Counted from the stretch's first letter, positions 7,488 to 27,352 are shown. The stretch: 64,000 bases of DNA from Halomonas sp. (GCA_011050415.1 DRFS01000006.1:245539-309538); one strand, 5' to 3'. The notes: a model not told the origin generated them from the letters alone. Numbers and translations are program-made.

Positions 7488-7508
7488 GTAGATCAACACC
7501 ACATTGGC

Positions 7509-9535: not shown

Positions 9536-9543
9536 GCTTCCTC

Positions 9544-11100: not shown

Positions 11101-12685
11101 AGGCATCCTTAACCTGTGCCGTAGGAGCCTGCTCTGCTGAGGGTTTATTAGTGCCATCCATAATAAAAACCTTCACCGCAGAAGCCACGATCAACGCAAA
11201 CAGAAACAGCACGGTAAAACCGCCTGCCGCCGCCAGGAATTTAATACCATCGACACCCTGGGCGCCGCCGCCGAAGGCAACCATCACATAAGCGATAATC
11301 GCGATTGACAGCCCCCAAAGGATCTTCTGCTTACGGGGGGCCTCCTCTTCTGCGGTCATGTTTTTAGTGCAGATGGTGGCAATGGTCGATGACATTGAGT
11401 CAGCCGCCGTGGAGAAGGAGATAATCAGCGTAAAAATAGCCAGCGGGATCAGCAAGGCAGACATAGGCAAGTGCTGCAGGAAGCCCCAGAGACCTGAAAC
11501 TGCACCGTTCTCAGTCACTACACTCACCAGATCCAGGGTGCCATCCATTTGCCACTTGATTGCCGATCCACCCCAGATAGCAAACCACACGATGCCGAAC
11601 AGTGAAGGCAGTATCCAGTTAATCACCAGAAATTCCCGTAGCGTTCTGCCATAGGAAATACGCGCCAAAAAAAGGCCCATCAAAGGCGCATAGGCGATCC
11701 ATATCGACCAGTCGTACATGGTCCACCAGGTAACCAGCGCTTCACCACCAGACTCTTTGGTATCGAATGACCAGAGAAAGAAGTTATCGAACCAGTAGCC
11801 CAAACTGGTCACCGACAGACTCAGGATGTAGTTCACTGGGCCAATAATCAGCAGAATGAGCACAAAGGCGTAGAAGATGTAAGCATTGACCGATGAAAGA
11901 AAGCGGATACCCCGCTTAAGACCGGACACCGCCGAAGTAATAAAGATAGCCGAAATAACCAGCGTTAAAATCAGCCAAGTGGTAGGGCTAGAGGCAATGC
12001 CATATTCGGCTTCAATGCCAGAACTGATCAGCGCAAGACCAGCCCCTAACGACGAAGCCAGGCCCAGCGCAATGGCAAGAATCGAGATAATATCGACCAC
12101 GGCACGCACGCTAGGATTGCGCTCTTTATTGCCCAATAACGGAGCGAGTGTTGAAGAGATCGAGAAGCGCTCTTTGCGATTAAAGTGCATATAGCCAATC
12201 ATCAAACCAACAATGGAGTACATGGCGTAGGGAATAAAGCTCCAGTTATGAAAGCTTCTGGCCAATGCAAAAATCGCCGCTTCGCCACTGTTAGGTTCAA
12301 ATGACTGGTTGCCGATTTCACCATAGACATTGCCGAGATAGATGATGGGCTCATTAACTGAATAGGTCACCACCCCGGTGGCGATGCCGCCGGTCAACGC
12401 CATAGCAAAGGTGGTTGCTAACGAAAACGTTGGCTTCGCGTTCGCCCCACCCAAACGAATATTGCCTGCCTTGGAAAAAAATATAAAAGCGGTGACACCC
12501 AAGGTCGAAATGGCCAGCAGTTGATAAAGCCAACCGAAGTCAGAAAGCGAGAGATAGAACAACTGCCTGGCAACACTAACCAGTAGTTCGTTGTTAACCA
12601 AGCCAATAATAACGGCCACCATAATAATGGCGAAGGCCGGGATAAAGACGCTGCGTTTTAACTGTTTTCCGTCTGATAGTGACAT
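11093..12685 (-). CDS. BCCT (betaine/choline/carnitine) family transporter
   Basis: About 12 TMs; GNIRLGG...KPTFS...FAMA..GG.A.G, HNWSF..YA.Y, WTMYDWSIWIAYAPLMGLFLARISYGRTLREF, TAADS. Confidence 0.92.
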   Translation of the reverse strand: MSLSDGKQLKRSVFIPAFAIIMVAVIIGLVNNELLVSVARQLFYLSLSDFGWLYQLLAISTLGVTAFIFFSKAGNIRLGGANAKPTFSLATTFAMALTGGIATGVVTYSVNEPIIYLGNVYGEIGNQSFEPNSGEAAIFALARSFHNWSFIPYAMYSIVGLMIGYMHFNRKERFSISSTLAPLLGNKERNPSVRAVVDIISILAIALGLASSLGAGLALISSGIEAEYGIASSPTTWLILTLVISAIFITSAVSGLKRGIRFLSSVNAYIFYAFVLILLIIGPVNYILSLSVTSLGYWFDNFFLWSFDTKESGGEALVTWWTMYDWSIWIAYAPLMGLFLARISYGRTLREFLVINWILPSLFGIVWFAIWGGSAIKWQMDGTLDLVSVVTENGAVSGLWGFLQHLPMSALLIPLAIFTLIISFSTAADSMSSTIATICTKNMTAEEEAPRKQKILWGLSIAIIAYVMVAFGGGAQGVDGIKFLAAAGGFTVLFLFALIVASAVKVFIMDGTNKPSAEQAPTAQVKDAYE

Positions 12686-12809
12686 TTAATGTCTCCTGTC
12701 GAGGTTTATTCTTATGACGCTTTTTTATCAGCTGCCGACGGCTCTCTGTCGGCACCTGTACCTGTGTATCCAGCAACGCTAACGGTAAGGAGGTTGTTGA
12801 TAAGAACGG

Positions 12810-14489
12810 CTACTTCACCATTGGCTTAACCATCGGTAAGTCGAGCCCCTGTTCAGTGGCACTCTGCTTGGCGATGTCGTAGCCGGCATCGGCGTGGCGC
12901 ATAACCCCGGTGGCCGGGTCATTGCGCAGCACGCGGCCCAATCGAGCATGAGCGTCATCCGTGCCATCGGCGACGATCACTACCCCTGCATGCTGGGAGT
13001 AACCCATGCCCACTCCACCGCCATGGTGAAGAGAAACCCAGGTAGCGCCCCCGGCAGTGTTGAGCAGCGCATTGAGCAGCGGCCAGTCGGAGACGGCATC
13101 CGAGCCATCCTGCATTGATTCAGTCTCGCGATTGGGGCTGGCCACCGAGCCGGAGTCCAGGTGGTCGCGACCAATCACAATAGGTGCTTTGAGCTCGCCA
13201 CTGGCGACCATGGCGTTAAACGCCTGCCCCAAGCGAGCACGATCCTTTAAGCCAACCCAGCAGATGCGCGCCGGTAAGCCCTGGAAGCTGATACGCTCCT
13301 TGGCCATATCCAGCCAGTTATGCAGATGCGGATCATCTGGGATGAGTTCTTTGACTTTCTGATCGGTTTTATAGATATCTTCTGGATCACCGGAGAGCGC
13401 CACCCAGCGGAATGGGCCAATTCCCTGGCAGAACAGTGGGCGAATGTAGGCAGGCACAAAGCCGGGGAAGTCGAAAGCGTTAGAAACGCCCTCCTCCTGA
13501 GCCATCTGGCGAATGTTATTGCCATAATCGAAGGTAGGTATACCCATTGCCTGGAAGTCGAGCATGGCCTGCACATGCACCGCCATGGAGCGCTTAGCCG
13601 CCTTAACCACCACCTCGGGCTCGGTCTTCCCGCGTGTCAGATACTCATCCCATGACCAGCCTGCGGGCAGATAACCGTGCAGTGGGTCGTGAGCGCTGGT
13701 CTGGTCGGTTACCATATCCGGCTTGATGCCACGCTTAATCAGTTCCGGCAATATTTCAGCGGCATTGCCATGCAGCGCAATCGAGACGGCTTTACCTTCT
13801 GAGGTATAGCGCTCCAGGCGCGCCAGGGCATCGTCGAGGTCACTCGCCTGCTCATCCACATAGCGGGTACGCAGACGCATATCAATACGACTCTGCTGAC
13901 ACTCAATATTCAGGCTGCAGGCACCCGCTAGCGTTGCCGCCAATGGCTGCGCCCCGCCCATACCACCAAGACCGGCCGTCAGAATCCAGCGCCCGGCCAG
14001 CTTGCCGTCGTAGTGCTGCCGACCAGCCTCAACAAAGGTCTCGTAGGTGCCCTGGACAATGCCCTGAGAACCGATGTAGATCCATGAACCAGCCGTCATC
14101 TGGCCGTACATCATCAGGCCTTTCTTATCCAGTTCATTGAAATGCTCCCAGTTAGCCCAGGCTGGCACTAGGTTGGAATTGGCAATCAGCACCCTCGGGG
14201 CGTCTTTATGGGTTTCAAATACCCCCACCGGCTTACCAGACTGAATCAGCAGTGACTGGTTATCTTCTAAACGTTTGAGCGTTTCAACGATGGTATCGAA
14301 ACACTCCCAATTGCGGGCGGCGCGGCCAATCCCGCCATAGACCACCAGCTCTTTGGGATTCTCGGCGACATCTGGATCTAGGTTGTTCATCAGCATGCGC
14401 AGCGGTGCTTCAGTCAGCCAGCTCTTGCAGGAGAGCTCGACTCCATGAGGTGCCCGAATTTCGGTATCGCGAAAACGTGAAAGAGACAT
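12810..14489 (-). CDS. hutU: Urocanate hydratase
   Basis: [71 protein letters not shown]. Confidence 0.98.
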
Positions 14490-14515
14490 GCTAACTCCTG
14501 TTTGTTGTCAAAGTT

Positions 14516-14525
14516 TGTATATACA
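14516..14525. promoter_or_regulatory. HutC operator candidate upstream of hutU
   Basis: Perfect palindrome TGTATATACA (TGTA-N2-TACA HutC-type), nested in a longer inverted repeat TTGTTGTCA...TGACAACAA (14502-14537). Confidence 0.8.
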
Positions 14526-14707
14526 TTATGACAACAACCACTTCTGCGCAATCACCTAAATCGCCCTTTTTAGCAAAAAAACAACTCAGTCTTAAATATT
14601 CGCCAACATAGTGCAAACGCCAATAATAGAACGAAATTGCGCACCAAAATGGACTTTAAGAGAAAATTCCAACTCTCTTCTTTACCTAAGAAGCGGACTT
14701 CGCTATA

Positions 14708-14717
14708 TGTATATACA
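14708..14717. promoter_or_regulatory. HutC operator candidate upstream of hutF
   Basis: Perfect TGTATATACA about 35 bp before the hutF ATG. Confidence 0.8.
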
Positions 14718-14750
14718 TTATCCGTTATTCGTTAACAAAAAGGAGCCCCA

Positions 14751-16112
14751 ATGACCCATTGCTATTTTGCTGATCATGCCCTACTACCGACTGGATGGGC
14801 CTCTCAGGTGCTGTTCGAAGTCGATGCCACGGGCATGCTTACATCGGTACTGCCCAACAGCTCGCCCGGCAACGCCCAGCGCTTAGCCGGGCCAGCGCTA
14901 CCCGGTATGCCTAACCTACATTCACACGCTTTTCAGCGCGTCATGGCGGGCCTAGCAGAAGTCGGTAGCCCCCAGCCAGACAGCTTCTGGAGCTGGCGAG
15001 ACCGCATGTACGGCTTGGTTGACCGCCTGACACCGGATCAAGTGGGCACCATTGCCCAGGCGCTCTACATCGAAATGCTCAAGGGCGGCTATACGCAGGT
15101 CAGCGAATTTCATTATTTGCACCACGATGTATCGGGCCAAGCCCATAGCGATCCGGCTGAAATGGCCTGGGCGATTAGCCAAGCAGCCGATCGCAGTGGC
15201 ATTGCGCTTACCTTGCTACCGGTGCTTTACGCCCACAGCGGCTTTGGCGGCCAGCCACCCAATCATGGGCAAAGACGTTTTATCCACGCCGTACCAGATT
15301 TTTTGAAATTGCTTGAGACGTTGAAGCCAAGCTTTGCCGACCACTCCACACAGGCACTAGGCATGGCGTTTCATTCCCTGCGCGCGGTGACATTGGAAGA
15401 GATCCAGGCGGTGCTGGCGACGAACCCTGTCGGGCCACGCCACATCCATGTCGCCGAGCAGCAACGCGAAGTGGAAGACAGCCTCGCCTATTCAGGCAAA
15501 CGCCCTGTGCGCTGGCTACTGGATAACGTTGAGGTGGATGAGCGCTGGTGTTTGATCCATGCCACTCACCTAGACGACTCAGAAGTACATGACCTCGCCA
15601 CTAGCGGCGCCGTAGCGGGGCTCTGCCCGACCACCGAGGCCAATCTGGGCGACGGCATCTTCCGCGCAGTGGAGTATGCCGCCCAGGGTGGGCGTCTGGG
15701 CATTGGCTCCGACAGCCATGTCTCACTCGACGTGGTTGAAGAGCTACGCCTGCTTGAGTACGGCCAGCGCCTTGCCACCCAACAGCGCAACTGCCTGCAC
15801 AGTAGCGACATACGCCCAGTGGGCGACTGGCTTTATCGCCATGCCTTAGCGGGAGGCGCCCAAGCCTCTGGCCAACCCATCGGCGCACTCGAAGCGGGCA
15901 AGCGGGCCGATATTGTCGTTCTTGATAGCAGCGACCCCTACCTCGCCACCAGTACAGACGAAACGCGGCTAGGACGTTGGCTGTTTGGCGGCTCCAAACA
16001 ACAGATACGCGATGTCATGGTCGCAGGCCGCTGGGTTATCCAGCAGCGGCGTCACGCCCTCGATGAGGCCAACAATGCAGCGCTTGCCAAACTGTTCCGT
16101 GAGATAGGTTAA
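14751..16112 (+). CDS. hutF: Formimidoylglutamate deiminase
   Basis: PGMPNLHSHAFQR.MAGLAE, DSFWSWRDRMY, EFHYLHH, FHSLRAV, HIHVAEQ..EV, CPTTEANLGDG, IGSDSH. Confidence 0.96.
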   Translation: MTHCYFADHALLPTGWASQVLFEVDATGMLTSVLPNSSPGNAQRLAGPALPGMPNLHSHAFQRVMAGLAEVGSPQPDSFWSWRDRMYGLVDRLTPDQVGTIAQALYIEMLKGGYTQVSEFHYLHHDVSGQAHSDPAEMAWAISQAADRSGIALTLLPVLYAHSGFGGQPPNHGQRRFIHAVPDFLKLLETLKPSFADHSTQALGMAFHSLRAVTLEEIQAVLATNPVGPRHIHVAEQQREVEDSLAYSGKRPVRWLLDNVEVDERWCLIHATHLDDSEVHDLATSGAVAGLCPTTEANLGDGIFRAVEYAAQGGRLGIGSDSHVSLDVVEELRLLEYGQRLATQQRNCLHSSDIRPVGDWLYRHALAGGAQASGQPIGALEAGKRADIVVLDSSDPYLATSTDETRLGRWLFGGSKQQIRDVMVAGRWVIQQRRHALDEANNAALAKLFREIG

Positions 16113-16138
16113 GCCGTTTGGCGCGAGGACGGCTTAAC
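16108..16138. terminator. Stem-loop between convergent hutF and hutC
   Basis: 10-bp perfect stem GTTAAGCCGT / ACGGCTTAAC; no long U tract, so a bidirectional terminator role is inferred. Confidence 0.45.
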
Positions 16139-16153
16139 AGCTTGCAAGAACGA

Positions 16154-16867
16154 CTACTTAGAAGAGTGCGCCATGGTGCGCAATTTATAGCGGTCACCGG
16201 GATGCAGCAGATGAGCATAGCTAATTAGGCGGTCGCCTGACCAAGTGCGCCGACGAACACTCAGGCAGGGTAGCGCAGCATCGATTTCTAGCCACTCTGC
16301 TGCACCCGCTTCTGGCAGCACCGCCTCTACCACGTGCTCCATATCGGTAATCGGGCAAGCGGCAACCAACACCTCATTGGGGGTTTGGCGATTGAAGTCT
16401 GCCTCCAAATAGCCAGGTACCCAGCGTGGATTGACGAAGCGCTCTTCGAGCTGGATCGGCTGGCCATTTTCCAGGTGAATAAGAATCGAATGAAACAACC
16501 TAGTCCCGATACGTACGCCCATCCGAAGGGCGATCTCATCGTCAGCATGCAACGCTTCGCAACTCACCACACGATTAGCGTATTCGTGGCCACGGCTGCG
16601 TACCTCATCGGCGATATTATTAATTTCGGCCAATGGCGACTCAGAGCGGCGATCCGTCACAAAGGTGCCGATCCCCGATTGGCGCACCAGATAGCCTTCC
16701 TGCACTAGGTCGCGAATGGCTTTGTTGGCCGTCATCCTGCTGACACCGAAGGTAACCGCAAGCTGCTCCTCAGGCGGGATCTTATGATCGACGGGAAAAT
16801 GACCTGTTTGGATATTATCCAGCAAGTACTGTTTGATCTGTTGATACCGGGGCGGTTGGCGTCCCAC
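16154..16867 (-). CDS. hutC: Histidine utilization repressor (GntR/UTRA), copy 1
   Basis: PRYQQIK, GVSRMTANKA, RQSGIGTFV, NIADEVRSRGH, QLEERFVNP, EHVVEA, RRTWS. GTG start. Confidence 0.9.
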   Translation of the reverse strand: MGRQPPRYQQIKQYLLDNIQTGHFPVDHKIPPEEQLAVTFGVSRMTANKAIRDLVQEGYLVRQSGIGTFVTDRRSESPLAEINNIADEVRSRGHEYANRVVSCEALHADDEIALRMGVRIGTRLFHSILIHLENGQPIQLEERFVNPRWVPGYLEADFNRQTPNEVLVAACPITDMEHVVEAVLPEAGAAEWLEIDAALPCLSVRRRTWSGDRLISYAHLLHPGDRYKLRTMAHSSK

Positions 16868-16922
16868 GTGCTCTCCTCAAATCCCTTTCACCACCCCACT
16901 TATTAGCACTCCGAAAGGAACA

Positions 16923-17519
16923 TCAAGCCCGTGGAAACAGGTCGATCCTAATCAGGCGCGTTGCAGGCAGCGTCTCAAATGTCATTATGTGACAGCTCTC
17001 GGTCGCTAACTCGTCATCAGCGCTGGGCCAGCGCCAAACATCGCCACTCTTAAGGAGCAGCGGCGGCTCACCGGCCAGCCACGCCTGCCCGTCAACGGCT
17101 AAGATAAGTGTCTCAGCGCTCGGGGCTTGCCTTAGCGACTCCCCAGACGTTAGCCAACGAACAGAAGCCTGCCAGTTTGCTGAATTGTACATTAAATTCA
17201 GCGCCCGGCTCGGCCCTTCAGGCAACAAGCAGTTCACCGCTGTTTCACCATCGAACAGGTAGCTTTCCCGTGGTGCCAAAACAGCACGCTGATCAGGCAA
17301 AACAAGTGTGACCGGATGCTCACCTATCACCGTAAAGTGACGCCTGACCCCAGCAATAATCGAGAATGGCCCCTCCCGCTCAAGTTCAGCCACCGAAACC
17401 CGCCAGCCTGGCGATTCCCCATCGCCCTTCTGGCGCGCCACTTCGCGTGTTACGCCACCGCCATTTTGCCAAGCGATGGGCAAAAGATCGGTAAAGCGTA
17501 ACCTCTCAGGCAGCTTCAT
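16923..17519 (-). CDS. hutD: HutD family protein
   Basis: WQNGGGVTREVA, WRVSVAE....GPFS...GVRR, ALNLM. Confidence 0.88.
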   Translation of the reverse strand: MKLPERLRFTDLLPIAWQNGGGVTREVARQKGDGESPGWRVSVAELEREGPFSIIAGVRRHFTVIGEHPVTLVLPDQRAVLAPRESYLFDGETAVNCLLPEGPSRALNLMYNSANWQASVRWLTSGESLRQAPSAETLILAVDGQAWLAGEPPLLLKSGDVWRWPSADDELATESCHIMTFETLPATRLIRIDLFPRA

Positions 17520-17532
17520 TGATGGCTCCTCA

Positions 17533-18504
17533 TCAGGATGCAGCGGCCTTGCGGTAGCTCATCGAGGCATCAATGCGGCCCAAGATGTAGTCACCCGCGG
17601 CTACTGGCGGATAGTGAGCTTCTGCTGCTGAGACACCAAGGTCGGCAGGATCAACGAGAGCCGTATAGTCGGGGTCATAGAAGGTCGCGATGGAGTAGCG
17701 TTCCCGGCCACTGGTATTGATGACCCGGTGCAGCGTCGAGCGAAAACGATCATTAGACCATCGCGCTAATAGATCGCCGACATTAACCACCAGCGAGCCC
17801 TCAATAAAAGGCGCATCAATCCAGCGCTCGCTACCCAGCTCGCGCACCTGCAAACCACCCACCGCATCCTGGTAGAGTAGCGTCACACAGCCATAATCGG
17901 TATGCGGGGCAACGCCAAATTGGTCCATCGGCCGATCGTCAGACTGAACGGGGTAATAGACCGCCTGAGTGCGTTGTAACGGCTTGGTATATTTAGCTGC
18001 AAAGAATTCAGGGTCGATCTCTAAGCTCATCGCAATAGCACGCAGCAGATCCGCGCCACAGCGGCCTACCTCCACAAAGTAGCGATCCATTGCTTGCTGG
18101 AATTCGGGCATAAAGTCCGGCCACTGGTTCGGTCCCCGTAGCGCTTCACCCGCCAGCACGCTCGGGTCATCCTCGGCCAGATCCAACCCAAAGCCATAGA
18201 ACTCCTTCTCATCGGGCCGGGTGGCCTGATACATCGTCGCCCCACCACGGCGATGAAAACCCCGGTGGCGTTTATTGACCGCCACCTGCGCCTTGCGCTC
18301 AAGCGGCTCAGCAAAGAAGCGCTGGGCGACCTCCATGGCATCGTCTATCACCGCCTGGGGAAGACCATGATTGATAATGTAGAAGAAGCCCACCTGGGTG
18401 CAGGCGTTATGTATCGCCTCACCAGCCCGAGCGAGAGCTTCAGCGTCACCCTCCCGTACGCCCTGCATATCCACAACAGGAATGTTCGTAGCTGAGTTAC
18501 TCAT
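17533..18504 (-). CDS. Fe(II)/2-oxoglutarate dioxygenase, isopenicillin N synthase-like (DIOX_N + 2OG-FeII_Oxy)
   Basis: IPVVDM, ACTQVGFFYIINHG, PNQWP, HTDYG (HxD), VVNVGDLL.RWSND.FRSTLHRV, RYS. Confidence 0.92.
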   Translation of the reverse strand: MSNSATNIPVVDMQGVREGDAEALARAGEAIHNACTQVGFFYIINHGLPQAVIDDAMEVAQRFFAEPLERKAQVAVNKRHRGFHRRGGATMYQATRPDEKEFYGFGLDLAEDDPSVLAGEALRGPNQWPDFMPEFQQAMDRYFVEVGRCGADLLRAIAMSLEIDPEFFAAKYTKPLQRTQAVYYPVQSDDRPMDQFGVAPHTDYGCVTLLYQDAVGGLQVRELGSERWIDAPFIEGSLVVNVGDLLARWSNDRFRSTLHRVINTSGRERYSIATFYDPDYTALVDPADLGVSAAEAHYPPVAAGDYILGRIDASMSYRKAAAS

Positions 18505-18599
18505 CTTCGCAGTCTCCTAACGATAAGAACGTACTTGCGCACATTCTCTTAGCGGTTTTGTTTTCAATAATGGCCGTGAAGGCGTTGCAATAACGATTC

Positions 18600-18615
18600 T
18601 GCAATGCGCGTGCCA
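18600..18615 (-). promoter_or_regulatory. Sigma-54 (-24/-12) promoter for the dioxygenase-hutD-hutC unit
   Basis: Minus strand TGGCAC-GCGCA-TTGCA, an exact match to TGGCAC-N5-TTGCW, about 95 bp upstream of the ATG at 18504. Confidence 0.75.
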
Positions 18616-18645
18616 AAAGCCATCAAAAACACTCAACACTCAATA

Positions 18646-18655
18646 AGTATATACA
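18646..18655. promoter_or_regulatory. HutC operator candidate upstream of the IPNS-like dioxygenase
   Basis: AGTATATACA, one mismatch to TGTATATACA, 30 bp from the sigma-54 site. Confidence 0.55.
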
Positions 18656-18845
18656 TATTAAAATATCCGGCCTGAAAAACAGTCCTGAACAGGCAACTTA
18701 AATAGACCACCAACGCACATCCTTATCTGAAAATTGCGCCAACAAGAGGCATAAAGATAAAAAACGCACCAATATACACAAAAAAATCAAAAATCCTTAT
18801 TCGCCCACTAATGACTACTTTTCACTTGCATCAAGCCCACCCACC

Positions 18846-18855
18846 TGTATATACA
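18846..18855. promoter_or_regulatory. HutC operator candidate upstream of hutH
   Basis: Perfect TGTATATACA about 75 bp before the hutH ATG. Confidence 0.8.
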
Positions 18856-18929
18856 TAATAAAGGTAATTAACTTATCACCACCCTTTTCCCCACGGCATA
18901 CTGCTTACCAAGCGCCGATAGAGGTAACC

Positions 18930-20462
18930 ATGACATCGATACAACGACTCTCACCAGGCCAACTAACGCTTGCGACACTGCGCGAGCTTTTTGAGGGCAG
19001 CCCTACTATCGAGCTCGACGACGAGAGCCGCGCCAGGGTCGATCGTGCCGAAGCTACGGTTAGCGCCATTCTCGACAGCGGCCGTACCGTTTACGGTATT
19101 AATACCGGCTTTGGCGTGCTGGCCCAAACCTCCATACCACGCGATTCGCTGACCGAGCTGCAGCGTAACTTGGTGCTGTCGCACAGCACCGGGGTCGGTG
19201 ACAATCTGGATGACGCCACCGTGGGGATGATTCTGGCGCTCAAAGCGACGTCGCTGGCCCGTGGCCACTCCGGCGTCCGCTGGCTGATTATTGAAAGCCT
19301 ATTGGCGCTTTACAATGCGCGGGTCTATCCCTGCATTCCTGCCAAGGGCTCGGTTGGCGCCTCGGGGGATCTAGCGCCACTGGCGCATATGGCGGCCACC
19401 CTGCTCGGCGAAGGCCGCATGCGTCATCAAGGACGAGAGATGCCCGCCAGTGAGGGGCTGGCCCTGGCCGGTATCGAGCCGCTTACGCTGGCACCCAAGG
19501 AGGGGCTGGCACTGATCAACGGCACCCAGGTATCCACCGCTCTGGCGCTACGCGGGCTGTTCGCCACCGAGAAACTATTCACCGCAGCCGTGGTGGCAGG
19601 CAGTCTGTCGGTGGATGCATTGAAGGGCTCAGATACCCCGTTTGACGAGCGCATTCAGGCCGTTCGCGGCCACCCCGGTCAGCGTGATGTCGCCGCTTTC
19701 TACCGCGAGCTGCTAGCGGGCAGCCGGGTGCGCGAATCCCACCGCGACTGCCCGCGGGTTCAGGATCCCTACTCACTGCGCTGCCAGCCCCAGGTGATGG
19801 GCGCCTGTCTGGACCACTTGCGCTTTGCGGCGGGCGTATTTCTGCGTGAGGCCAACGCCGTTTCCGATAACCCGCTGGTGTTCGATAATGGTGATGTGCT
19901 TTCTGGCGGTAACTTCCATGCGGAGCCGGTAGCGATGGCCGCCGATGTACTGGCGCTGGTGATCTCAGAAATCGGCGCCTTGTCGGAGCGCCGCATCGCC
20001 CAATTGGTCGATCCAGCGCTATCCGGCTTGCCCGCCTTTCTAGTGACGGAGAGCGGGCTCAACTCCGGCTTTATGATCGCCCAGGTCAGCGCCGCCGCCC
20101 TGGCGTCCGAGAACAAAACTCTGGCCCATCCGGCTTCGGTAGATAGCTTACCGACCTCTGCCAATCAAGAAGACCACGTCTCCATGGCCACCTTCGCCGC
20201 AAGGCGCTTGGCCGATATGGCGTTTAACTCCAGCGCCGTGGTCGCCATTGAGCTGCTGGCAGCGGCCCAAGGGGTCGAATTTCATCGCCCCATGACCTCC
20301 TCAGTCGCCCTCGAGGAAGCGTTAGCGACCATACGCCGCGACGTGGCACGTTATGAGCGGGACCGCTACTTCGCCCCCGACCTGGTAGCCGCCCAGCGCT
20401 TCGTCAGCGACGCTGTCTTCGAGACGCTACTGCCCCGTTCACGGCTCTACGCTGAAGGTTGA
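18930..20462 (+). CDS. hutH: Histidine ammonia-lyase (canonical, MIO-forming)
   Basis: [36 protein letters not shown] (ASG intact), [39 protein letters not shown]. Confidence 0.97.
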
Positions 20463-20524
20463 TATGAAACGACACTGCGCCTGCCGCTAACCACCAACGC
20501 GAAGCCGAACGAGCGAGATTGATC

Positions 20525-21913
20525 ATGATTTCCAGCCACACAGCCGACCATCTCTTTCTTAAAACACTAAAAGATATGCTTGGCGACAGCGTGCTGTTGG
20601 GCGAAGAGATTCCTGCGTCCTGCTTCAGCGATTGGACAGGCCATGCTGCCTGCCGACCGCTGGCACTGGTACGCCCAGCTACCACTGAAGAGGTTGCCAG
20701 CCTGCTACGACTGTGCAATGAACACCGCCGCCCGGTGGTGCCCCAGGGAGGAATGACCGGCTTGGCGGGCGCGGCGGTGCCCAGTGCCGATAGCATCGCA
20801 ATATCGCTTGGTCGACTAACCGGTGTCGAGAGCGTCGATGGCGATGCCGCTACCCTGACGGTGCGCGCGGGCACCACACTACAAACCGTCCAGGATGCGG
20901 CTGAAGAGGCAGGTTTTCGCTACCCGGTCGATTTTGGCGCCCGGGGAACGTGCCAAATCGGCGGTAACATCGCGACCAATGCCGGTGGCCATGGGGTGAT
21001 TCGTCACGGCATGACCCGCGACCAGGTGCTCGGCCTGGAGGTGGTACTCGCGGATGGCCGGATTCTCGACTTGATGAACGGCATGATCAAGAACAATACC
21101 GGCTACGACCTTAAGCACTGCTTTATCGGCGCCGAAGGCACCCTGGGCATTATCACCCGCGCCGTGCTGCGTCTGGCGCCTCCCAAGGGTGAAACCCATA
21201 CGTTTTTGTGCGGGCTGCCCAACTATCCGGCGGCTGTTGCGTTACTCCACCGGTTACGCGGTGCTGGGCTGGCGCTAGAGGCATTTGAAGTGATGTGGCA
21301 GGACTTTTACACCATGAGCTGTGGCTGGCGAGACGGCCAGTCACCGCTGCACACAAGCCACCCTATTTACCTGCTGTGCGAGGCAGAGGGCGCAGCCAGC
21401 CATCTGGAGGCTGCCCTGGAAAGCGCGCTGGCAAGCGGCGAGGTGGAAGATGCGGTACTGGCTGGCAGCAGTACATAAGCCCGCGAATTATGGGCTATCC
21501 GTGAGGCGACCGGCGAATTTCCGCTCAAGCTGGCACCCATCAACTTTGATATCAGCCTGCCGGTTGCCACGATCGGCGCCTTTGTCGAAGACGCCAGCAA
21601 AATGCTCACTCAGCGCTGGCCGGACATCCGCATTGTCAATTTTGGCCATATCGGCGACTGCAATCTACACCTAACCGTGGATGGCCAGTCCCTGGCCGAG
21701 GATACCGCCGAGACTCGCCATGCTATCGAAGCGGAGGTCTATCGCCTGGTCGGTGACTATAGCGGTTCGATCTCTGCCGAGCACGGCATTGGCCTGCTCA
21801 AGCGCGATTTCTTACACCACAGTGTCCACCCCGAAGCGCTGGACGTTATGCGCTCGCTCAAACATACCCTGGACCCTAACGGCATCCTCAATCCGGGCAA
21901 GCTATTCGGTTAA
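20525..21913 (+). pseudogene. FAD-linked oxidoreductase (D-2-hydroxyacid dehydrogenase / GlcD-like) interrupted by an in-frame TAA at 21476-21478
   Basis: ORFs 20519-21478 and 21602-21913 share a frame. Reading through TAA gives ...AGSST*ARELWAIREATGEFPLKLAPINFDISLPV...FGHIGDCNLH...SISAEHGIG...DPNGILNPGK, about 463 aa, with PQGGMTGL, GGNIATNAGG, NTGYDL, GAEGTLGIIT. Confidence 0.85.
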
Positions 21914-22010
21914 GTCGCTCACCTTAGCCGCCCTTATAGGCGGGCCGGTACGCACCCAAACTGTGCAGGCTGTAGTTAGCTATTTCACGCCTAAATCTGC
22001 AAAACCATTA

Positions 22011-22020
22011 TGTATATACA
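22011..22020. promoter_or_regulatory. HutC operator candidate upstream of the amino acid ABC operon
   Basis: Perfect TGTATATACA, 14 bp upstream of a sigma-54 site. Confidence 0.8.
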
Positions 22021-22033
22021 GGTAAGTACTTTT

Positions 22034-22049
22034 TGGCACACCGTTTGCT
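22034..22049 (+). promoter_or_regulatory. Sigma-54 (-24/-12) promoter for the ABC operon
   Basis: TGGCAC-ACCGT-TTGCT, exact consensus spacing. Confidence 0.78.
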
Positions 22050-22113
22050 TTTAGATAACTGACGTTCCGAATCGCTGCAGTGCTGATACGCACTATCAGC
22101 CACGCCGCTAGCC

Positions 22114-22168
22114 CTAGCACTATCGCACCTAGCACTATCGCATCTAGCACTATCTCACCTAGCCCTAT
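22114..22168 (+). repeat. 15-bp tandem repeat in the 5' leader of the ABC operon
   Basis: CTAGCACTATCGCAC CTAGCACTATCGCAT CTAGCACTATCTCAC CTAGCCCTAT, ending at the GGAG RBS. Confidence 0.85.
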
Positions 22169-22182
22169 GGAGTCATTACTCG

Positions 22183-23016
22183 ATGAACAAATCCACGCTG
22201 CTTAACCGGTCACTCTCCCAGCTAACTTTAGGCCTTGGCCTCTGCTTAGCGATCTCCAACGCCTCTGCAGACCTGCTTGATGAGGTTAAAGAGCGGGGTG
22301 TACTCAATGTTGGCACTGAGTTTCACTTCGCGCCCTTCGCTTATTTAGATGCGGGCCAGCAGAGTGGTTTAAACCTTGAGCTTATGGAGCGTGTTGGTGA
22401 CGAATTAGGGATCACGATTAACTGGATCGACTTACCCTGGCCCAGCGTACTCCCCGGCCTTGAGGCGGGTAATTACGACTTTGTTGCAGGCCCCGCGATG
22501 ATTACCCAAGAGCGCAAACTACGCTACAACTTCACCTTGCCTATCGCCGATGCCACTGTCGCTATCCTCAAGCGCGCTGACGACGACTCTATTCAAACCC
22601 CCGAAGATATTTCTGGCAAAGCTGCCGGGGGCGGCCGCGGTACCGCACAGCTTGAACAGCTAAAGGCATTTGCCGCTGAGCTGCCGGATCCGCCGACTAT
22701 TACCGAGTATGTGGACTACAGCCAAACCTACGCCGACCTGGCCGCTGGGCGTATCGATGCTGTCGCCAACTCGCTACCCAATATTGCTTATACGGCGACT
22801 CAGCGCCCGATGTTTGAAGTTGTCCTTCCCCCCTTTGGCCAACCTGCCTACTTCGGCTATATGGCGCGTAACGATGAAGAATCCGCATCACTGGTTGATG
22901 CCATCAACGAGGTGCTTCTATACATGCACGAAGATGGCAGCCTCTCCGAGCTGCAAACCAAGTGGTTCGGCGCGCCGATGGATGTTCCCAGCGAAGATTT
23001 TGAGCCCGCAATCTAA
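22183..23016 (+). CDS. Polar amino acid ABC transporter substrate-binding protein
   Basis: Signal peptide; L..VKERGVL.VG.E.hFAPF, WPSVLPGLEAGNYDFV, ITQERK, DLAAGRIDAV, GSLSELQTKWFG. Confidence 0.92.
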   Translation: MNKSTLLNRSLSQLTLGLGLCLAISNASADLLDEVKERGVLNVGTEFHFAPFAYLDAGQQSGLNLELMERVGDELGITINWIDLPWPSVLPGLEAGNYDFVAGPAMITQERKLRYNFTLPIADATVAILKRADDDSIQTPEDISGKAAGGGRGTAQLEQLKAFAAELPDPPTITEYVDYSQTYADLAAGRIDAVANSLPNIAYTATQRPMFEVVLPPFGQPAYFGYMARNDEESASLVDAINEVLLYMHEDGSLSELQTKWFGAPMDVPSEDFEPAI

Positions 23017-23028
23017 GCTACCTTCAAT

Positions 23029-23066
23029 GCGTGCTGGGCGACAGTTGCGTAGGCCGCCCAGCACGC
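23029..23066 (+). other. Intercistronic stem-loop after the SBP gene
   Basis: 12-bp perfect stem GCGTGCTGGGCG / CGCCCAGCACGC; this position is typical of mRNA-stabilising hairpins in ABC operons. Confidence 0.6.
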
Positions 23067-23093
23067 CCTCCCTCACCTTAAGGGATACTGCCA

Positions 23094-23753
23094 ATGTTCG
23101 ACTGGCCGACGCTTCTTTTTAGCCTGCCACTGCTGGGTAAGGCACTCCTGATCACGCTCCAGACGTCACTGTTAGGCAATGCCATTGGCTTTGTTATCGG
23201 CACCCTGATTGCCAGCATGCAGTTGGCCAAAATGCCTTTGCTGCGCCGTCTCGGCGGCAGCTATATCTTTATCTTTCGAGGGGTACCACTGCTCGTCCAG
23301 CTACTGGTTATCTACTACTTGGCCCCCATGTTCGGGCTACCCAACCTATCCCCCATGGTGGCCGCGGTGATGGCACTCTCGCTCTGTTCAGGCGCTTATA
23401 TCGCCGAAATATTACGCGGCGGGCTATTGGCGATCCCCTCTGGTCAGCGTGAAGCGGCCCACTTACTCGGTATGAGTCGCCCCGCTATTTTGCTACGCAT
23501 CGAGCTGCCCCAGGCGGTTCAAAGCACCCTCCCTTCACTGGTAAACGAGCTGGTACTGCTGATTAAGGCCTCGGCGTTGGTGTCAGTCGTCGGCCTGGCG
23601 GACCTTACCCGGGTGGCTCAAAACCTGGCCTCTTCAGACTACTTATTTTTCCAGCACTACCTGGTACTGGCAGGGATCTACTGCCTGATCAACATACCGT
23701 TGACCATGTTCGGGCGCCGACTTGAGCGTCACCTAGAGAGGAGTCTGGCGTGA
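23094..23753 (+). CDS. Amino acid ABC transporter permease
   Basis: FRGVPLLVQL, AYIAEILRGG..AIPSGQREAA..LGM, LIKASALVSVVG. Confidence 0.93.
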   Translation: MFDWPTLLFSLPLLGKALLITLQTSLLGNAIGFVIGTLIASMQLAKMPLLRRLGGSYIFIFRGVPLLVQLLVIYYLAPMFGLPNLSPMVAAVMALSLCSGAYIAEILRGGLLAIPSGQREAAHLLGMSRPAILLRIELPQAVQSTLPSLVNELVLLIKASALVSVVGLADLTRVAQNLASSDYLFFQHYLVLAGIYCLINIPLTMFGRRLERHLERSLA

Positions 23754-24412
23754 TTTTCGATCTATCAATTATTACCGCCAATGCCGACGCCATCTGGAGC
23801 GCTTTTTTAGTCACCATTTATACCTGGCTGGTGGGCAGCGTATTGGGGTTGGTAACGGGACTATTGATTGCTGCGCTGATGCTCTTTGGCGGTCGGCCAC
23901 TGCAGCTCATATTGAGAGTGTTTATTGAGCTGGTACGCGGCACCCCGTTTTTGGTGATCCTGTTTCTGGTCTACTACGGCGGCCCGTCATTCGGTCTACG
24001 TCTCGGCGCGATTACCGCTGGGGTGCTCTGCATCGCTTTCTACAGCAGCGTCTATTTCGCGGAGATTTTTCGTAGCGGCTTCGCCGCCGTCCCCCGCGGG
24101 CAACTGGAAGCTGGCGAGTGCCTGGGACTAGGTCGCCTGCAACTTATGTGGCGCGTACAGCTGCCCCAAATGCTGGTACTGATCCTGCCAGCCATCGTCA
24201 ATATGCTGACAATTCTATGCAAAGAGACCGCTGTCCTGTCGATTATCACCGTCCCTGAGCTAACCGCGGTGCTCACCGGTATTGGTACCCGCACCTTCAC
24301 TTTTATTGAAACGCTATTGGTTCTCTGCATCGCCTACCTACTGCTTATCGAAATCACCTCGCGGGTGGGCAGGTGGCTTGAGCACCGCGTCGGCACCTAC
24401 TTACAGCGCTGA
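23750..24412 (+). CDS. Amino acid ABC transporter permease
   Basis: [50 protein letters not shown] start overlapping the upstream stop. Confidence 0.93.
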
Positions 24413-24425
24413 ACAGGAGCTAGCT

Positions 24426-25310
24426 ATGCCGCTTTCCCTATCTTCGTCCACATCTACCCCTGCTGCGGCTTTGGTCGAAGCTACGCAAAAAGGGGGTGAT
24501 AAGGCGTCCCCCATTATCCATCTCTCCGCCGTCGGCAAGCGTTTCGGCGAGCATCAAGTACTCACTGATATCAACCTTGATGTGCATCACTCGGAGGTCG
24601 TCTGCCTGATTGGCCCATCGGGGTCGGGTAAAAGTACGCTGCTGCGCAGCATGGCCTTTCTTGAGGAGTATGACGAAGGGGAGATCCATATCGAGGGGCG
24701 CCTACTCGGCTGGGAAATCGATGACCGGGGGCGCCGCCAGCACGCCGGACGCAACCGCCTCAATCAGGCCCGGCGCAACCTGGGCATCGTCTTTCAGCAG
24801 TTCAACCTGTGGCCACATATGACAGCGCTGGGCAATGTCACCGAGGCCCTGGTAAGAGTGCGTAGGCTAAAGCGCAGCGAAGCTGAAAAGCGCGCCATGG
24901 AGGTGCTCGACAAGGTTGGCCTGGCCGAGAAGGCCAAGGAGTACCCAGCGCGACTTTCCGGCGGCCAACAGCAGCGCGTGGCCATTGCCCGGGCACTGGC
25001 CATGGAACCCAAGATTATGCTCTTCGATGAGCCTACCTCAGCACTCGACCCTGAACTGGTGGGCGAGGTATTGGCGGTGATGAAGCAGCTCGCTCTTGAA
25101 GGCATGACCATGGTGGTAGTGACCCACGAGATGGGCTTTGCCGCTCAAGTCGCTGATACCGTTGTGTTCCTTGATCAAGGCAGCATCGTCACCCGTGGCA
25201 CGCCCAGTGAAGTATTCCGCGACACTCAGCACCCTCGCCTTCGTCAGTTTTTACAGAATTACCTGGATCGCAACGCCTTCTGGAATACCACTCCGGAGCT
25301 GGAAAACTAA
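24426..25310 (+). CDS. Amino acid ABC transporter ATP-binding protein
   Basis: [59 protein letters not shown]. Start set at ATG 24426 behind a CAGGAG RBS. Confidence 0.94.
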
Positions 25311-26461
25311 TGCTGCCTATCGACCCCACTCCCCTGGCACGCCGCGAAGTGCGCGAGCTTGAAAGCTACAATGCTGGGCTCTCCAGTGAACAGGTAAGCA
25401 AGCGCTTTGGCATCTCAAAGATTGCCAAGCTAGGCAGCAATGAGAACCCCTATGGCCCCTCTCCCCTGGTAGCCACCGCTATCTCAAACGCCATTAGCGA
25501 TAGCGGCCTTTATCCCGACGCCTCCTGTGGGCTATTACGCGATTTGCTGGCGGTGCGCCTTGGGGTTGCGCCCGAACAGCTGGTGTTTGGTAATGGCTCG
25601 GAAGATCTGATTGCGATTTTGTGCCGGGTGTTTCTCGACCACGGCGATAACTTAGTCACCGTCACCCCCGCCTTCGGTCTGCACACCCTATACCCCCACT
25701 CACTGGGGGCGAAGATTCGCGCGGTGCCCATGCTGGAGGGAGGCAGTTTTGACATTGACGGGCTGATTGAGGCGCTTAGTGAGCCGCCACGTATGCTGAT
25801 GTTCTCATCCCCCTCCAATCCGGTTGGTAGCGCACTATCGGCAAGCCAGTTAAAGCAGTTGCTTGAGGTGCTAACCCCCGCCACTCTATTAGTCTTCGAT
25901 GAGGCCTATTATGAGTACGCTCAGGGCAGCCCCGGCTATCCGGATGTGCTGGCTCGGCTATCCCTACAGCAGACGCCATGGATCGTTTTACGCACCTTCT
26001 CAAAAGCCTATGCGCTGGCCGGTTTACGTGTGGGCTATGGCATTGCCAGCAGCCCAGCGCTGGCCGATCTTATCGATCGCCTCCGCACGCCGTTTAACGT
26101 TAACCGCCTTGCTCAAGTAGCTGCACTAGCAGCGCTGCAGGATGAGGCCCACCTCAAGGCTGGGCTTGAAGCGACCATTCGCGAACGCGAGCGGGTTGCC
26201 AAGGCGCTTCACGAGATGCACCTGACGGTAGTGCCTTCTCTGACTAATTTCCTGTTTTTCAAAACGGATCAAGCATCCGATAGCGTGCATGAAGCACTGC
26301 TGAGCCACGGCGTAATTGTTAAACCCTGGCGCGAGCCAGGCTATCGCCACTGGCTGCGCGTCTCAATCGGCAGCCGCGAGCAGAATGATCAATTTCTTAC
26401 CGCGCTTTCGGAAACTCTTCAGCCCGCGCCAGCACCCTTTGCTCACGACGATACTCCCTGA
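25310..26461 (+). CDS. hisC: Histidinol-phosphate/aromatic aminotransferase (HisC family, PLP)
   Basis: KLGSNENPYGPSP, GNGSED, SPSNPVG, DEAYYEY, RTFSKAYALAGLRVGY. Translationally coupled (TAATG) to the ABC ATPase; its role may be catabolic. Confidence 0.85.
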   Translation: MLPIDPTPLARREVRELESYNAGLSSEQVSKRFGISKIAKLGSNENPYGPSPLVATAISNAISDSGLYPDASCGLLRDLLAVRLGVAPEQLVFGNGSEDLIAILCRVFLDHGDNLVTVTPAFGLHTLYPHSLGAKIRAVPMLEGGSFDIDGLIEALSEPPRMLMFSSPSNPVGSALSASQLKQLLEVLTPATLLVFDEAYYEYAQGSPGYPDVLARLSLQQTPWIVLRTFSKAYALAGLRVGYGIASSPALADLIDRLRTPFNVNRLAQVAALAALQDEAHLKAGLEATIRERERVAKALHEMHLTVVPSLTNFLFFKTDQASDSVHEALLSHGVIVKPWREPGYRHWLRVSIGSREQNDQFLTALSETLQPAPAPFAHDDTP

Positions 26462-26500
26462 CATAGATAACTCAACTCTCTAAATAAGGCGGCTAACCCA

Positions 26501-27316: not shown

Positions 27317-27352
27317 TCGCTAGGCCAAAATTTTTCATAACTGGAGTAGCGG

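Follow-up and report, generated by a model that had tools for sequence, protein, structure and literature searches.

Five HutC boxes found in a marine, Halomonas-type histidine-utilisation cluster of the window, the whole 64-kb stretch of DNA that was analysed, are probably genuine operators of HutC-type GntR repressors set over five transcription units, and the locus appears to be a classical hut locus with its regulator HutC1 fused with a module bearing a second regulator, HutC2. The five putative units are hutU-BCCT transporter-lyase paralog-hutI-hutG; hutF; 2OG oxygenase-hutD-hutC1; hutH-FAD-linked oxidase; and ABC importer-HisC-like aminotransferase-PhyH-hutC2. All of them would be controlled by the histidine pathway via HutC-type repressors. 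The genes were assigned as follows.

7509..14489, minus strand: classical hutU unit, whole
7509-8330, minus strand: hutG, NCBIfam equivalog
8327-9535, minus strand: hutI, NCBIfam equivalog
9544-11157, minus strand: histidine-lyase (HAL) paralog, hutU unit
11093-12685, minus strand: BCCT transporter, hutU unit
12810-14489, minus strand: hutU, NCBIfam equivalog
14751..16112, plus strand: hutF, formimidoylglutamate deiminase
16154-16867, minus strand: HutC1, TIGR02018 287 bits (cut-off 220)
16923-17519, minus strand: hutD, in the 2OG oxygenase unit (16154..18504)
17533-18504, minus strand: 2OG-Fe(II) oxygenase, DIOX_N and 2OG-FeII_Oxy
18930..20462, plus strand: hutH, histidine ammonia-lyase, true equivalog, TIGR01225 683 bits (cut-off 539)
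20519..21913, plus strand: FAD-linked oxidase, GlcD / D-2-hydroxyacid dehydrogenase type, PF01565/PF02913
22183-23016, plus strand: ABC binding protein, in the ABC operon (22183..28108)
23094-23753 and 23750-24412, plus strand: ABC permeases
24282-25310 (ORF), plus strand: ABC ATPase, family match starting at residue 78
25310-26461, plus strand: HisC-like aminotransferase, TIGR01141 296 bits (cut-off 277)
26501-27316, plus strand: PhyH dioxygenase
27353-28108, plus strand: HutC2, TIGR02018 282 bits (cut-off 220)

The five-step Hut route with hutF and hutG was encoded, and hutH, hutU, hutI, hutF and hutG all scored above the NCBIfam curated cut-offs. The nearest structures to the HisC-like aminotransferase were histidinol-phosphate or phenylalanine aminotransferases. 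The 2OG oxygenase carried generic names only in all sources, and its nearest solved structures revealed no substrate.

The original prediction had placed five HutC-type operator sequences in intergenic promoter regions. An exact scan of the window agreed, returning four copies of TGTATATACA and one of AGTATATACA, which has one mismatch to TGTATATACA; all five boxes lay upstream of genes, at distances of 27-163 bp. The boxes and the associated promoter elements are listed below; no strand was assigned to the boxes or to the palindrome.

14499..14540: imperfect palindrome, 42 bp, around box 1, with flanking half-sites TTGTCA ... TGACAA
14516..14525: HutC box 1, TGTATATACA, 27 bp upstream of the hutU ATG (minus strand)
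14708..14717: HutC box 2, TGTATATACA, 34 bp upstream of hutF
18600..18615, minus strand: perfect sigma-54 promoter TGGCAC-N5-TTGCA of the 2OG oxygenase-hutD-hutC1 unit
18646..18655: HutC box 3, AGTATATACA (gene-ward TGTATATACT), 142 bp upstream of the 2OG oxygenase gene (minus strand)
18846..18855: HutC box 4, TGTATATACA, 75 bp upstream of hutH
22011..22020: HutC box 5, TGTATATACA, 163 bp upstream of the ABC binding-protein gene
22034..22049, plus strand: perfect sigma-54 promoter TGGCAC-N5-TTGCT of the ABC operon

The 8-base core GTATATAC was unbroken in all five boxes. With at most one mismatch, TGTATATACA was observed five times in the window against 1.0 expected, and none of 100 dinucleotide shuffles reached this count. 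Under a first-order Markov model, GTATATAC was expected 0.40 times in the whole window and 0.075 times in the ~6.3 kb of intergenic DNA, against five observed. No TGTA-N2-TACA was found elsewhere in the 64-kb window, where the looser pattern GTMTAKAC had a single extra match, at 60591. As a stand-in for the genome-wide motif background, 1.54 Mb of related loci was used; GTMTAKAC occurred there at 0.138 per kb, with the majority of matches at hut and module promoters themselves.

The assignment of TGTA-N2-TACA to HutC also held, as the boxes fit both the published consensus and the core of catalogued HutC sites. This consensus has been footprinted, its effector is urocanate, and it overlaps the sigma-54 site at PhutU (PMC12977541); hundreds of predicted proteobacterial HutC sites with the TGTATATACA core appear among the entries of the PMC4494728 supplement. 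The entire HutC subfamily shares the generic core GTMTAKAC, and therefore the core alone cannot assign a box to one paralog. Beyond the palindrome and subfamily core, a location at hut promoters with HutC encoded nearby and conservation in orthologous promoters were found. When three intergenic regions were aligned across 8-9 Halomonadaceae, the spacers had diverged but the boxes stood out as invariant islands; box 1 was unchanged in 8 sequences and box 3 in 9. The boxes also recurred from gamma- to beta-proteobacteria.

Box 1 is the predicted operator of the minus-strand hutU-BCCT-HAL paralog-hutI-hutG unit, and the arms of the palindrome around it (21 nt each) showed 76% complementarity. Sigma-70 promoter scans at hutU, hutF and hutH gave nothing convincing, and a search for RNA runs of this strain yielded none that were usable. 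Box 4 contains a TATATA, and a conserved TTGCAT is found 16 nt before it on the upstream side. By our reading of the -10 overlaps, the boxes at these three genes would cover the likely -10/+1 region, so that a bound repressor would block RNA polymerase. At the other two units, the near edge of box 3 lies 30 nt upstream of the sigma-54 promoter element, and box 5, followed by a weaker half-box GTAAGTAC (22022-22029), lies 13 nt upstream of its counterpart. An analogous GGCAC-N5-ATGCT precedes the Pseudomonas 2OG oxygenase orthologues, and in Pseudomonas modules TGGCAC adjoins the box too. Because neither box overlaps the -24/-12 elements, simple occlusion is not evident there; a repressor bound 13 or 30 nt upstream of the -24 element may either spread across the promoter by oligomerisation or obstruct the activator. 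Repression would be lifted by urocanate, a product of the pathway. HutC2 may respond to a closely related compound instead, for example imidazole propionate; by its title, as cited in the references of PMC12772324, Schlesinger and Magasanik 1965 describes imidazolepropionate as a non-metabolisable inducer of hut enzymes.

The composition of the module was compared across 80 related loci with a 2OG oxygenase homologue, a box being defined as GTMTAKAC at most 300 bp upstream of a gene. In addition to the 2OG oxygenase, the FAD-linked oxidase and HutC2, the module comprises an ABC importer of the polar-amino-acid type; an FMN 2-hydroxyacid dehydrogenase, a HisC-like aminotransferase and a histidase are optional. 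Pseudomonas, Paraburkholderia and Xanthomonas, among others, also carry it, and its promoters there contain the same core, GTATATAC. The ABC binding protein and HutC2 were both encoded in 60 of the 80 loci. Boxes preceded 66 of the 80 oxygenase homologues, 60 of 65 ABC binding-protein genes and 25 of 28 hutH homologues. In Pseudomonas and others, the gene order of the ABC operon was the same, with the regulator gene last, and solitary oxygenase genes of the P. gingeri group still had a sigma-54 promoter and a TGTATATACA box. Among the 60 module loci, hutU lay within 10 kb in just 5, and genomes exist with the module and HutC2 and no classical hut gene within 10 kb. The module is mostly autonomous in other genomes and is joined here to a classical hut locus. 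A regulon reaching beyond textbook Hut had been predicted; this stood insofar as the dioxygenase, hutH-dehydrogenase and ABC promoters were boxed, but the genes belong to a separate HutC2 module and are not plain additions. Judging from conservation in other bacteria, the set of oxygenase, dehydrogenase, transporter and aminotransferase would be co-regulated with histidine breakdown.

Two HutC equivalogs (TIGR02018) were encoded in cis, and the HTH domains of both bear the HutC-type recognition helix SRMT-x-N-[KR]-A. The HTH of HutC2 was closest to HutC of Pseudomonas, Klebsiella and Erwinia (38-40 of 65 residues identical, 58-62%), and that of HutC1 to the Chromobacterium and Hahella type (36-38 of 65); HutC2 also matched PDB 2PKH, by sequence only. 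The Paraburkholderia module regulator had the same HTH as HutC_BXE2 and HutC_BPY3. Since HutC1 and HutC2 share one core, cross-regulation between them is likely. It is possible, with a clearly lower probability than shared control, that control is instead partitioned, HutC1 acting on hutU, hutF and its own operon only and HutC2 alone acting on the hutH-oxidase and ABC units in response to another ligand. In that case, the ligand of HutC2 would be the module substrate, and the extra genes would not respond to urocanate. Where classical hut genes are not nearby, the module still has a regulator and boxes of its own, and HutC1 and HutC2 are just 40% identical. The box flanks differ as well, (T/A)ATGTATATACAT(T/A) in classical boxes vs CCTGTATATACAGG or CGGTATATACA in Pseudomonas modules, and each Vreelandella hutH and ABC box has one CCTGTATA-type half. 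However, the identical core of all five boxes and the nearly alike recognition helices make cross-binding hard to exclude, hutC1 and the oxygenase share one operon, and the only MIO-type histidase of the window is the hutH of a module-type unit, which must therefore be induced before histidine can be catabolised.

The original prediction corresponded to one regulon under HutC1 and urocanate, in which case HutC2 would be superfluous or have its targets at other loci of the genome. This is improbable. The core common to the five boxes is in its favor, as are the binding of Pseudomonas HutC to TGTA-N2-TACA and its release by urocanate, but every module locus has HutC2 at the end of its ABC operon and a box in front of that operon, an arrangement characteristic of a dedicated repressor that controls its own expression. 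The predicted response of all five units to urocanate is not supported in that form, since it presumes one regulator where there are two paralogs and a module that travels with HutC2.

The preferred reading, a classical hut locus fused with a HutC2 module, was compared with known systems. As in the HutC-Phut system of P. fluorescens SBW25 and P. aeruginosa PAO1 (PMC12977541), TGTA-N2-TACA boxes were present at the hutU and hutF promoters, the hutU operator was extended by extra half-sites, a sigma-54 promoter adjoined a box, and an autoregulated hutC would be co-transcribed with hutD, here as predicted from sequence. Unlike in that system, the 2OG oxygenase gene heads a sigma-54 unit that continues with hutD and hutC1, a separate boxed promoter serves hutH, a second HutC is encoded in a boxed operon of its own, and the DNA-binding domain of HutC1 is of the Chromobacterium/Hahella type, not the Pseudomonas type. 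In the regulons given by Suvorova et al. 2015 (PMC4494728), HutC paralogs likewise number two to four in many proteobacteria, with TGTATATACA-like sites given for each of them, and certain predicted HutC targets lie outside the core hut genes. Among the HutC-sheet rows covered here, there were no oxygenase/ABC module boxes for HutC_BXE2 or HutC_BPY3 and no entry for a Halomonadaceae HutC.

Judging from the gene content, imidazole compounds are plausible substrates of the module enzymes. The module would convert imidazole-lactate, and perhaps imidazole-propionate, to imidazole-pyruvate, then histidine and urocanate; its likely role would be to funnel imidazole-lactate, -pyruvate or -propionate into histidine and urocanate. 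A title cited in PMC3953581, that of Coote and Hassall 1973, concerns the degradation of imidazolyl-lactate and imidazolylpropionate via histidine in Pseudomonas (Comamonas) testosteroni and acidovorans. In this route, the 2-hydroxy acid is reportedly oxidized to imidazolylpyruvate, which is transaminated to histidine and enters Hut. The module follows the logic of this route in having one or more dehydrogenases, a HisC-type aminotransferase and a histidase. However, the classical imidazolyl-lactate dehydrogenase is said to be NAD(P)-linked (EC 1.1.1.111), whereas the module dehydrogenases are flavoproteins, FAD-linked here with an additional FMN LldD type in relatives, and by family assignment no NAD(P) 2-hydroxyacid dehydrogenase was present among them. 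In the searchable literature, no gene was linked to the biochemistry of the imidazolyl-lactate route. In the glutarate hydroxylase CsiD and the L-2-hydroxyglutarate oxidase LhgO, a 2OG oxygenase and a flavin 2-hydroxyacid oxidase likewise occur as a pair, controlled by a repressor of the GntR family. By analogy only, they offer a precedent for C2 hydroxylation followed by oxidation to a 2-oxo acid; the module oxygenase differs from CsiD in fold family and substrate.

It is rather unlikely that the boxes are real and the module is unrelated to imidazoles, serving another amino-acid-like compound or 2-hydroxy acid with a borrowed HutC-family repressor. HutC-subfamily regulators do control many unrelated pathways, and the oxygenase, binding protein and oxidase were assigned to families only generically. 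However, HutC2 is a HutC equivalog above the curated cut-off, a histidase is encoded in 23 and a HisC-family aminotransferase in 24 of the 60 module loci, the oxygenase adjoins hutC and hutUGHI in alpha-proteobacterial loci, and in Halomonadaceae the hut locus surrounds the module. Genes for a true histidase and a HisC-family aminotransferase travel with those for 2-hydroxyacid dehydrogenases of the D-type (FAD) and the L-type (FMN). That the boxes are chance AT-rich palindromes or plain promoter elements without a repressor role is hardly credible: intergenic DNA is richer in AT (48% GC vs 55% in the window) and TATATA resembles a -10 hexamer, but the excess of boxes over expectation and shuffles argues against this, and their conservation contradicts it.

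The expectation that the dehydrogenase feeds imidazole compounds into Hut probably does not hold for this strain. The gene for the FAD-linked oxidase is broken by one in-frame TAA (21476-21478), which is the same in contigs from three samples and stands where relatives have a conserved Gln. The FMN 2-hydroxyacid dehydrogenase (LldD type), present in 36 of the 80 related loci, is absent from this locus, although most close relatives have one here. With the oxidase truncated and the FMN enzyme missing, the dehydrogenase of this strain probably supplies nothing to Hut, and part of the proposed imidazole route would be non-functional here. The HutC boxes are real and ordinary in kind, and the useful lead is the uncharacterised module.

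A pattern search of the window located TGTATATACA at positions 14516, 14708, 18846 and 22011 and a one-mismatch copy, AGTATATACA, at 18646. These HutC-type palindromes, designated boxes 1 to 5 in order of position, lay in front of the following genes.

Boxes in the window
Box 1, 14516, 27 bp upstream of hutU
Box 2, 14708, 34 bp upstream of hutF
Box 3, 18646, 142 bp upstream of the oxygenase gene
Box 4, 18846, 75 bp upstream of hutH
Box 5, 22011, 163 bp upstream of the binding-protein gene

Genes surrounding the boxes
7509-8330, minus strand, hutG
8327-9535, minus strand, hutI
9544-11157, minus strand, histidine-lyase paralog (score under the hutH cut-off)
11093-12685, minus strand, BCCT transporter
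12810-14489, minus strand, hutU
14751-16112, plus strand, hutF
16154-16867, minus strand, HutC1 (TIGR02018, 287 bits)
16923-17519, minus strand, hutD
17533-18504, minus strand, 2OG-Fe(II) oxygenase (DIOX_N and 2OG-FeII_Oxy)
18930-20462, plus strand, hutH
20519-21913, plus strand, FAD-linked GlcD-type oxidase
22183-23016, plus strand, ABC binding protein
From the binding protein to 25310, plus strand, two ABC permeases, then the ATPase
25310-26461, plus strand, HisC-family aminotransferase
26501-27316, plus strand, PhyH dioxygenase
27353-28108, plus strand, HutC2 (TIGR02018, 282 bits)

The background of the motif was gauged on the window and on 1.54 Mb of related loci. Five matches with at most one mismatch were found in the window, whereas dinucleotide shuffles gave a mean of 1.0 and never five. 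With a first-order Markov model, the core GTATATAC was expected 0.40 times in the whole window and 0.075 times in its intergenic part, and it was observed five times. Therefore, both the coordinates of the boxes and their non-random occurrence, as proposed in the original prediction, were confirmed. Apart from the boxes, TGTA-N2-TACA was absent from the window, and the looser HutC-subfamily pattern GTMTAKAC had a single additional match there, at 60591. In the related loci, the density of GTMTAKAC was 0.138 per kb, and most of the matches were these same promoter sites.

The gene for the histidine-lyase paralog overlapped that for the BCCT (betaine-type) transporter (9544-12685). Because both genes lay inside the hutU operon, this pair was placed under box 1. 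A MIO-less lyase of such a kind was reportedly described in Shewanella woodyi in a 2025 preprint.

The HutC consensus of Pseudomonas established by footprinting is TGTA-N2-TACA, the releasing ligand is urocanate, and a 51-bp HutC footprint at PhutU of PAO1 overlaps a sigma-54 site (PMC12977541). The core of the HutC subfamily is GT-M-TA-K-AC, and the supplementary table of the same study lists TGTATATACA-centred HutC sites across alpha-, beta- and gamma-proteobacteria, often in genomes with two to four HutC paralogs and in some cases before non-hut genes (PMC4494728). When the hutU-hutF, oxygenase-hutH and oxidase-ABC spacers were aligned with those of eight Halomonadaceae relatives, the five boxes appeared as invariant islands in diverged, indel-rich surroundings. 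A chance origin of the boxes was ruled out by the statistics together with this conservation. Box 1 was enclosed by a 42-bp imperfect palindrome, an arrangement reminiscent of the Pseudomonas hutU operator, which is extended and has multiple half-sites. The five boxes are very probably genuine HutC-family operators, as predicted from their sequence. HutC sites of this kind are familiar from textbooks, so the boxes bring no new principle of regulation; the locus adds to the known family of HutC-controlled loci, in which HutC paralogs with accessory targets have already been catalogued.

Exactly two perfect sigma-54 promoters were found in the window.

Sigma-54 promoters in the window
18600-18615, minus strand, TGGCACGCGCATTGCA, before the oxygenase-hutD-hutC1 unit
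22034-22049, plus strand, TGGCACACCGTTTGCT, before the ABC operon

Box 3 was located 30 nt upstream of the former and box 5 13 nt upstream of the latter, with a weak half-box, GTAAGTAC, between box 5 and the promoter. In Pseudomonas, the orthologous oxygenase promoter read GGCAC-N5-ATGCT followed directly by CCTGTATATACCGG or CCTGTCTATACAGC, and the box of the ABC promoter was 5 nt from TGGCAC. In sigma-70 scans, the three spacers scored no better than shuffled sequence, and no convincing promoter was found at hutU, hutF or hutH. By eye, the TATATA within the hutH box was preceded at 16 nt by a conserved TTGCAT, and the TATATG at the hutF box at 17 nt by a conserved TTTAC; CATAAT adjoined the hutU box. 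The hutU, hutF and hutH boxes may thus overlap the -10/+1 region; because the scans remained at shuffle level, these -35/-10 readings are our own and the prediction is weak.

Other elements were also present in the spacers. In the ABC leader, past the sigma-54 promoter but ahead of the start codon, 3.7 copies of a 15-bp tandem repeat, CCTAGCACTATCGCA, were present (22113-22168); most of this repeat was missing from the aligned close relatives. A near-palindrome resembling the NtrC-type site GCACC-N5-GGTGC, GCACCCAAACTGTGC (21951-21965), preceded the ABC sigma-54 start by approximately 100 bp and was partly conserved among the relatives. GCACCAAAA-like blocks were conserved in the other two spacers as well. 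Despite this conservation, GCACCAAAA was not retained as an NtrC-like element, since its 29 matches in the window did not clearly exceed the 20.6 expected.

The distribution of the extra genes was studied by scanning the oxygenase protein against one genome per species, which yielded 80 loci (57-94% identity), and by mapping the window proteins onto these loci. The ABC binding protein and a HutC2 orthologue occurred together in 60 of the 80. In these 60 loci, the HutC2 orthologues were 50-97% identical to HutC2 and typically encoded by the final gene of the ABC operon; the FAD oxidase was present in 58, a HisC-like aminotransferase in 24 and histidase in 23, and hutU lay within 10 kb in only 5. 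A gene for an FMN-dependent LldD-type L-2-hydroxyacid dehydrogenase stood beside the FAD oxidase gene in 36 of the 80 loci. The hosts included Vreelandella/Halomonas, Salinicola, many Pseudomonas, Xanthomonas, Janthinobacterium, Paraburkholderia, Caballeronia, Pandoraea and one Competibacteraceae genome. Among the related loci, GTMTAKAC was found within 300 bp upstream of the oxygenase gene in 66/80, of the binding-protein gene in 60/65 and of the histidase gene in 25/28. Stand-alone oxygenase genes of the P. gingeri group retained the sigma-54 promoter and TGTATATACA, and in two Phenylobacterium genomes the oxygenase gene was flanked by a hutC-like gene and hutUGHI. The recurrence of the boxes and the linkage to HutC2 bore out the assignment of the extra enzymes to a HutC-type regulon, and this central inference is now stronger than it was from the window alone. 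The oxygenase, hutH-oxidase and ABC units are likely members of such a regulon.

The PhyH dioxygenase gene (26501-27316), which separates the aminotransferase gene from hutC2, had counterparts in only four of the related loci, all from Vreelandella/Halomonas; it was absent from the related loci L001, L004, L007 and L008 and undetected in the Pseudomonas and beta-proteobacterial loci. It is an accessory gene. In Paraburkholderia (L046, 800-5800; also L053, L054, L063 and L068), the module was back to back with a second cluster, which encoded an ABC transporter, another HutC-like regulator and a lyase sharing 46-47% identity with the lyase paralog of the window; therefore, two HutC paralogs were adjacent there too. 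In Salinicola peritrichatus, two more TGTATATACA boxes (L008, 19202 and 19304) lay in the interval from hutG to a remote homologue of aromatic lyases that shared 32% identity with hutH, and a second oxygenase paralog (L009, 84% identical) was without any box.

HutC1, encoded in the oxygenase-hutD-hutC1 unit, and HutC2, encoded at the end of the ABC operon, were 40% identical and scored 287 and 282 bits, respectively, on the HutC equivalog model TIGR02018 (curated cut-off, 220). The recognition helix SRMT-x-N-[KR]-A and the wing SG-[IV]-GTF were common to both. Judged from their sequences, neither is a doubtful HutC. Compared with the HTH domains in PMC4494728, that of HutC2 was nearest to the Pseudomonas, Klebsiella and Erwinia type, which has been studied by experiment (38-40/65 identical), and that of HutC1 to the Chromobacterium, Hahella and Psychromonas type (35-38/65). 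The effector domain of P. syringae HutC was matched by both paralogs (136 and 124 bits). HutC1 as the sole "true" HutC was rejected, as the DNA-binding domain of HutC2 resembles the experimentally studied HutC proteins no less than that of HutC1 does, and the effector-domain matches exist for both.

The classical boxes in the window were (T/A)ATGTATATACAT(T/A), those of the Pseudomonas module were CCTGTATATACAGG, CCTGTATATACCGG or CGGTATATACAAC, and each of the Vreelandella hutH and ABC boxes combined one CCTGTATA-type half with one ATGTATA-type half. These flanks are compatible with either partitioned or shared binding by HutC1 and HutC2; hence, the urocanate response of all five units, which the original prediction had inferred, is uncertain. 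A single urocanate signal for the five units is possible, with the balance slightly against it. The units with the firmest case for this response are hutU, hutF and the hutC1 operon; for the HutC2-linked units it is more tentative. A search for RNA runs gave none from this strain, and the best of the other RNA data sets shared about 0.1 of the sampled words. Imidazolepropionate is reported to induce the Klebsiella hut enzymes without being metabolised (Schlesinger and Magasanik 1965); therefore, a HutC-type repressor can sense that analogue.

The recurring set comprised a true histidase, a HisC-family aminotransferase and D-type (FAD) and L-type (FMN) 2-hydroxyacid dehydrogenases. The D- and L-specific flavin dehydrogenases would convert D/L-imidazole-lactate to imidazole-pyruvate, from which a HisC-type histidine:2-oxoglutarate aminotransferase would form histidine for entry into Hut. 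The 2OG-dependent oxygenase could act on imidazole propionate (dihydrourocanate), yielding urocanate or imidazole lactate, and a HutC paralog sensing an imidazole acid would switch the module on. The oxygenase was the most constant member of the module and was found even alone under a HutC box, so a reaction needing only Hut downstream fits best. Taken as a whole, the proposal that these genes form an aerobic route for histidine-derived imidazole acids, so far a route without genes, is speculative and rather unlikely to hold in full. The imidazole-acid salvage function suggested by the gene content is a reasonable, if tentative, lead.

The proposed steps come in the same order as those reported from biochemical work on P. 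testosteroni (Coote and Hassall 1973). The classical imidazole-lactate dehydrogenase differs in cofactor type from the module flavoenzymes. Urocanate-respiring bacteria, Shewanella among them, produce imidazole propionate (bioRxiv 10.1101/2025.08.13.670108), and as a substrate it suits the marine-sediment origin of the organism. Neither database names nor solved structures supported a particular substrate for the oxygenase or the module: among solved structures, the oxygenase matched only generic or unassigned enzymes, and the binding protein (glutamine and ancestral-CDT types) and the aminotransferase (HisC enzymes) had no substrate-specific match. More than 2,400 oxygenase relatives were found at E <= 1e-60, and the named ones were all designated only "isopenicillin N synthase family" or similar. 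The searchable literature contained no genes assigned to imidazole-lactate or imidazole-propionate catabolism, and searches with Paraburkholderia locus tags likewise gave nothing relevant.

In this strain, the FAD oxidase gene contained one in-frame TAA (21476-21478) after residue 319 of 464, and the frame was open to the normal C-terminus. This stretch was letter-identical in contigs of three samples from two studies, and relatives have a conserved Gln at the position. The FMN LldD-type gene (~1.3 kb), located between hutH and the FAD oxidase gene in most close relatives (L001-L005, L007 and L008; in L001 at 6757-8118) and in many Pseudomonas, was absent at this place from the window (20462-20519), L006 and L012. 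Therefore, the dehydrogenase part probably does not operate here, contrary to the expectation that a dehydrogenase feeds Hut in this strain. The hutH-oxidase promoter and box were apparently kept because they serve hutH too.

The locus is a natural case of two HutC paralogs with one shared operator core, and it offers a convenient system for asking how such repressors escape cross-talk or make use of it. Through its boxes, a 2OG oxygenase that is widespread and annotated only in generic terms becomes linked to histidine metabolism. Imidazole propionate, a metabolite of microbes, is of medical interest, and aerobic genes for its catabolism were not found in the searchable literature. The boxes also mark out a portable set of genes that includes a HutC paralog of its own and is a concrete candidate for how bacteria break down imidazole lactate and imidazole propionate; the value of the analysis is that a widespread uncharacterised module has been delimited and a testable function proposed for it.
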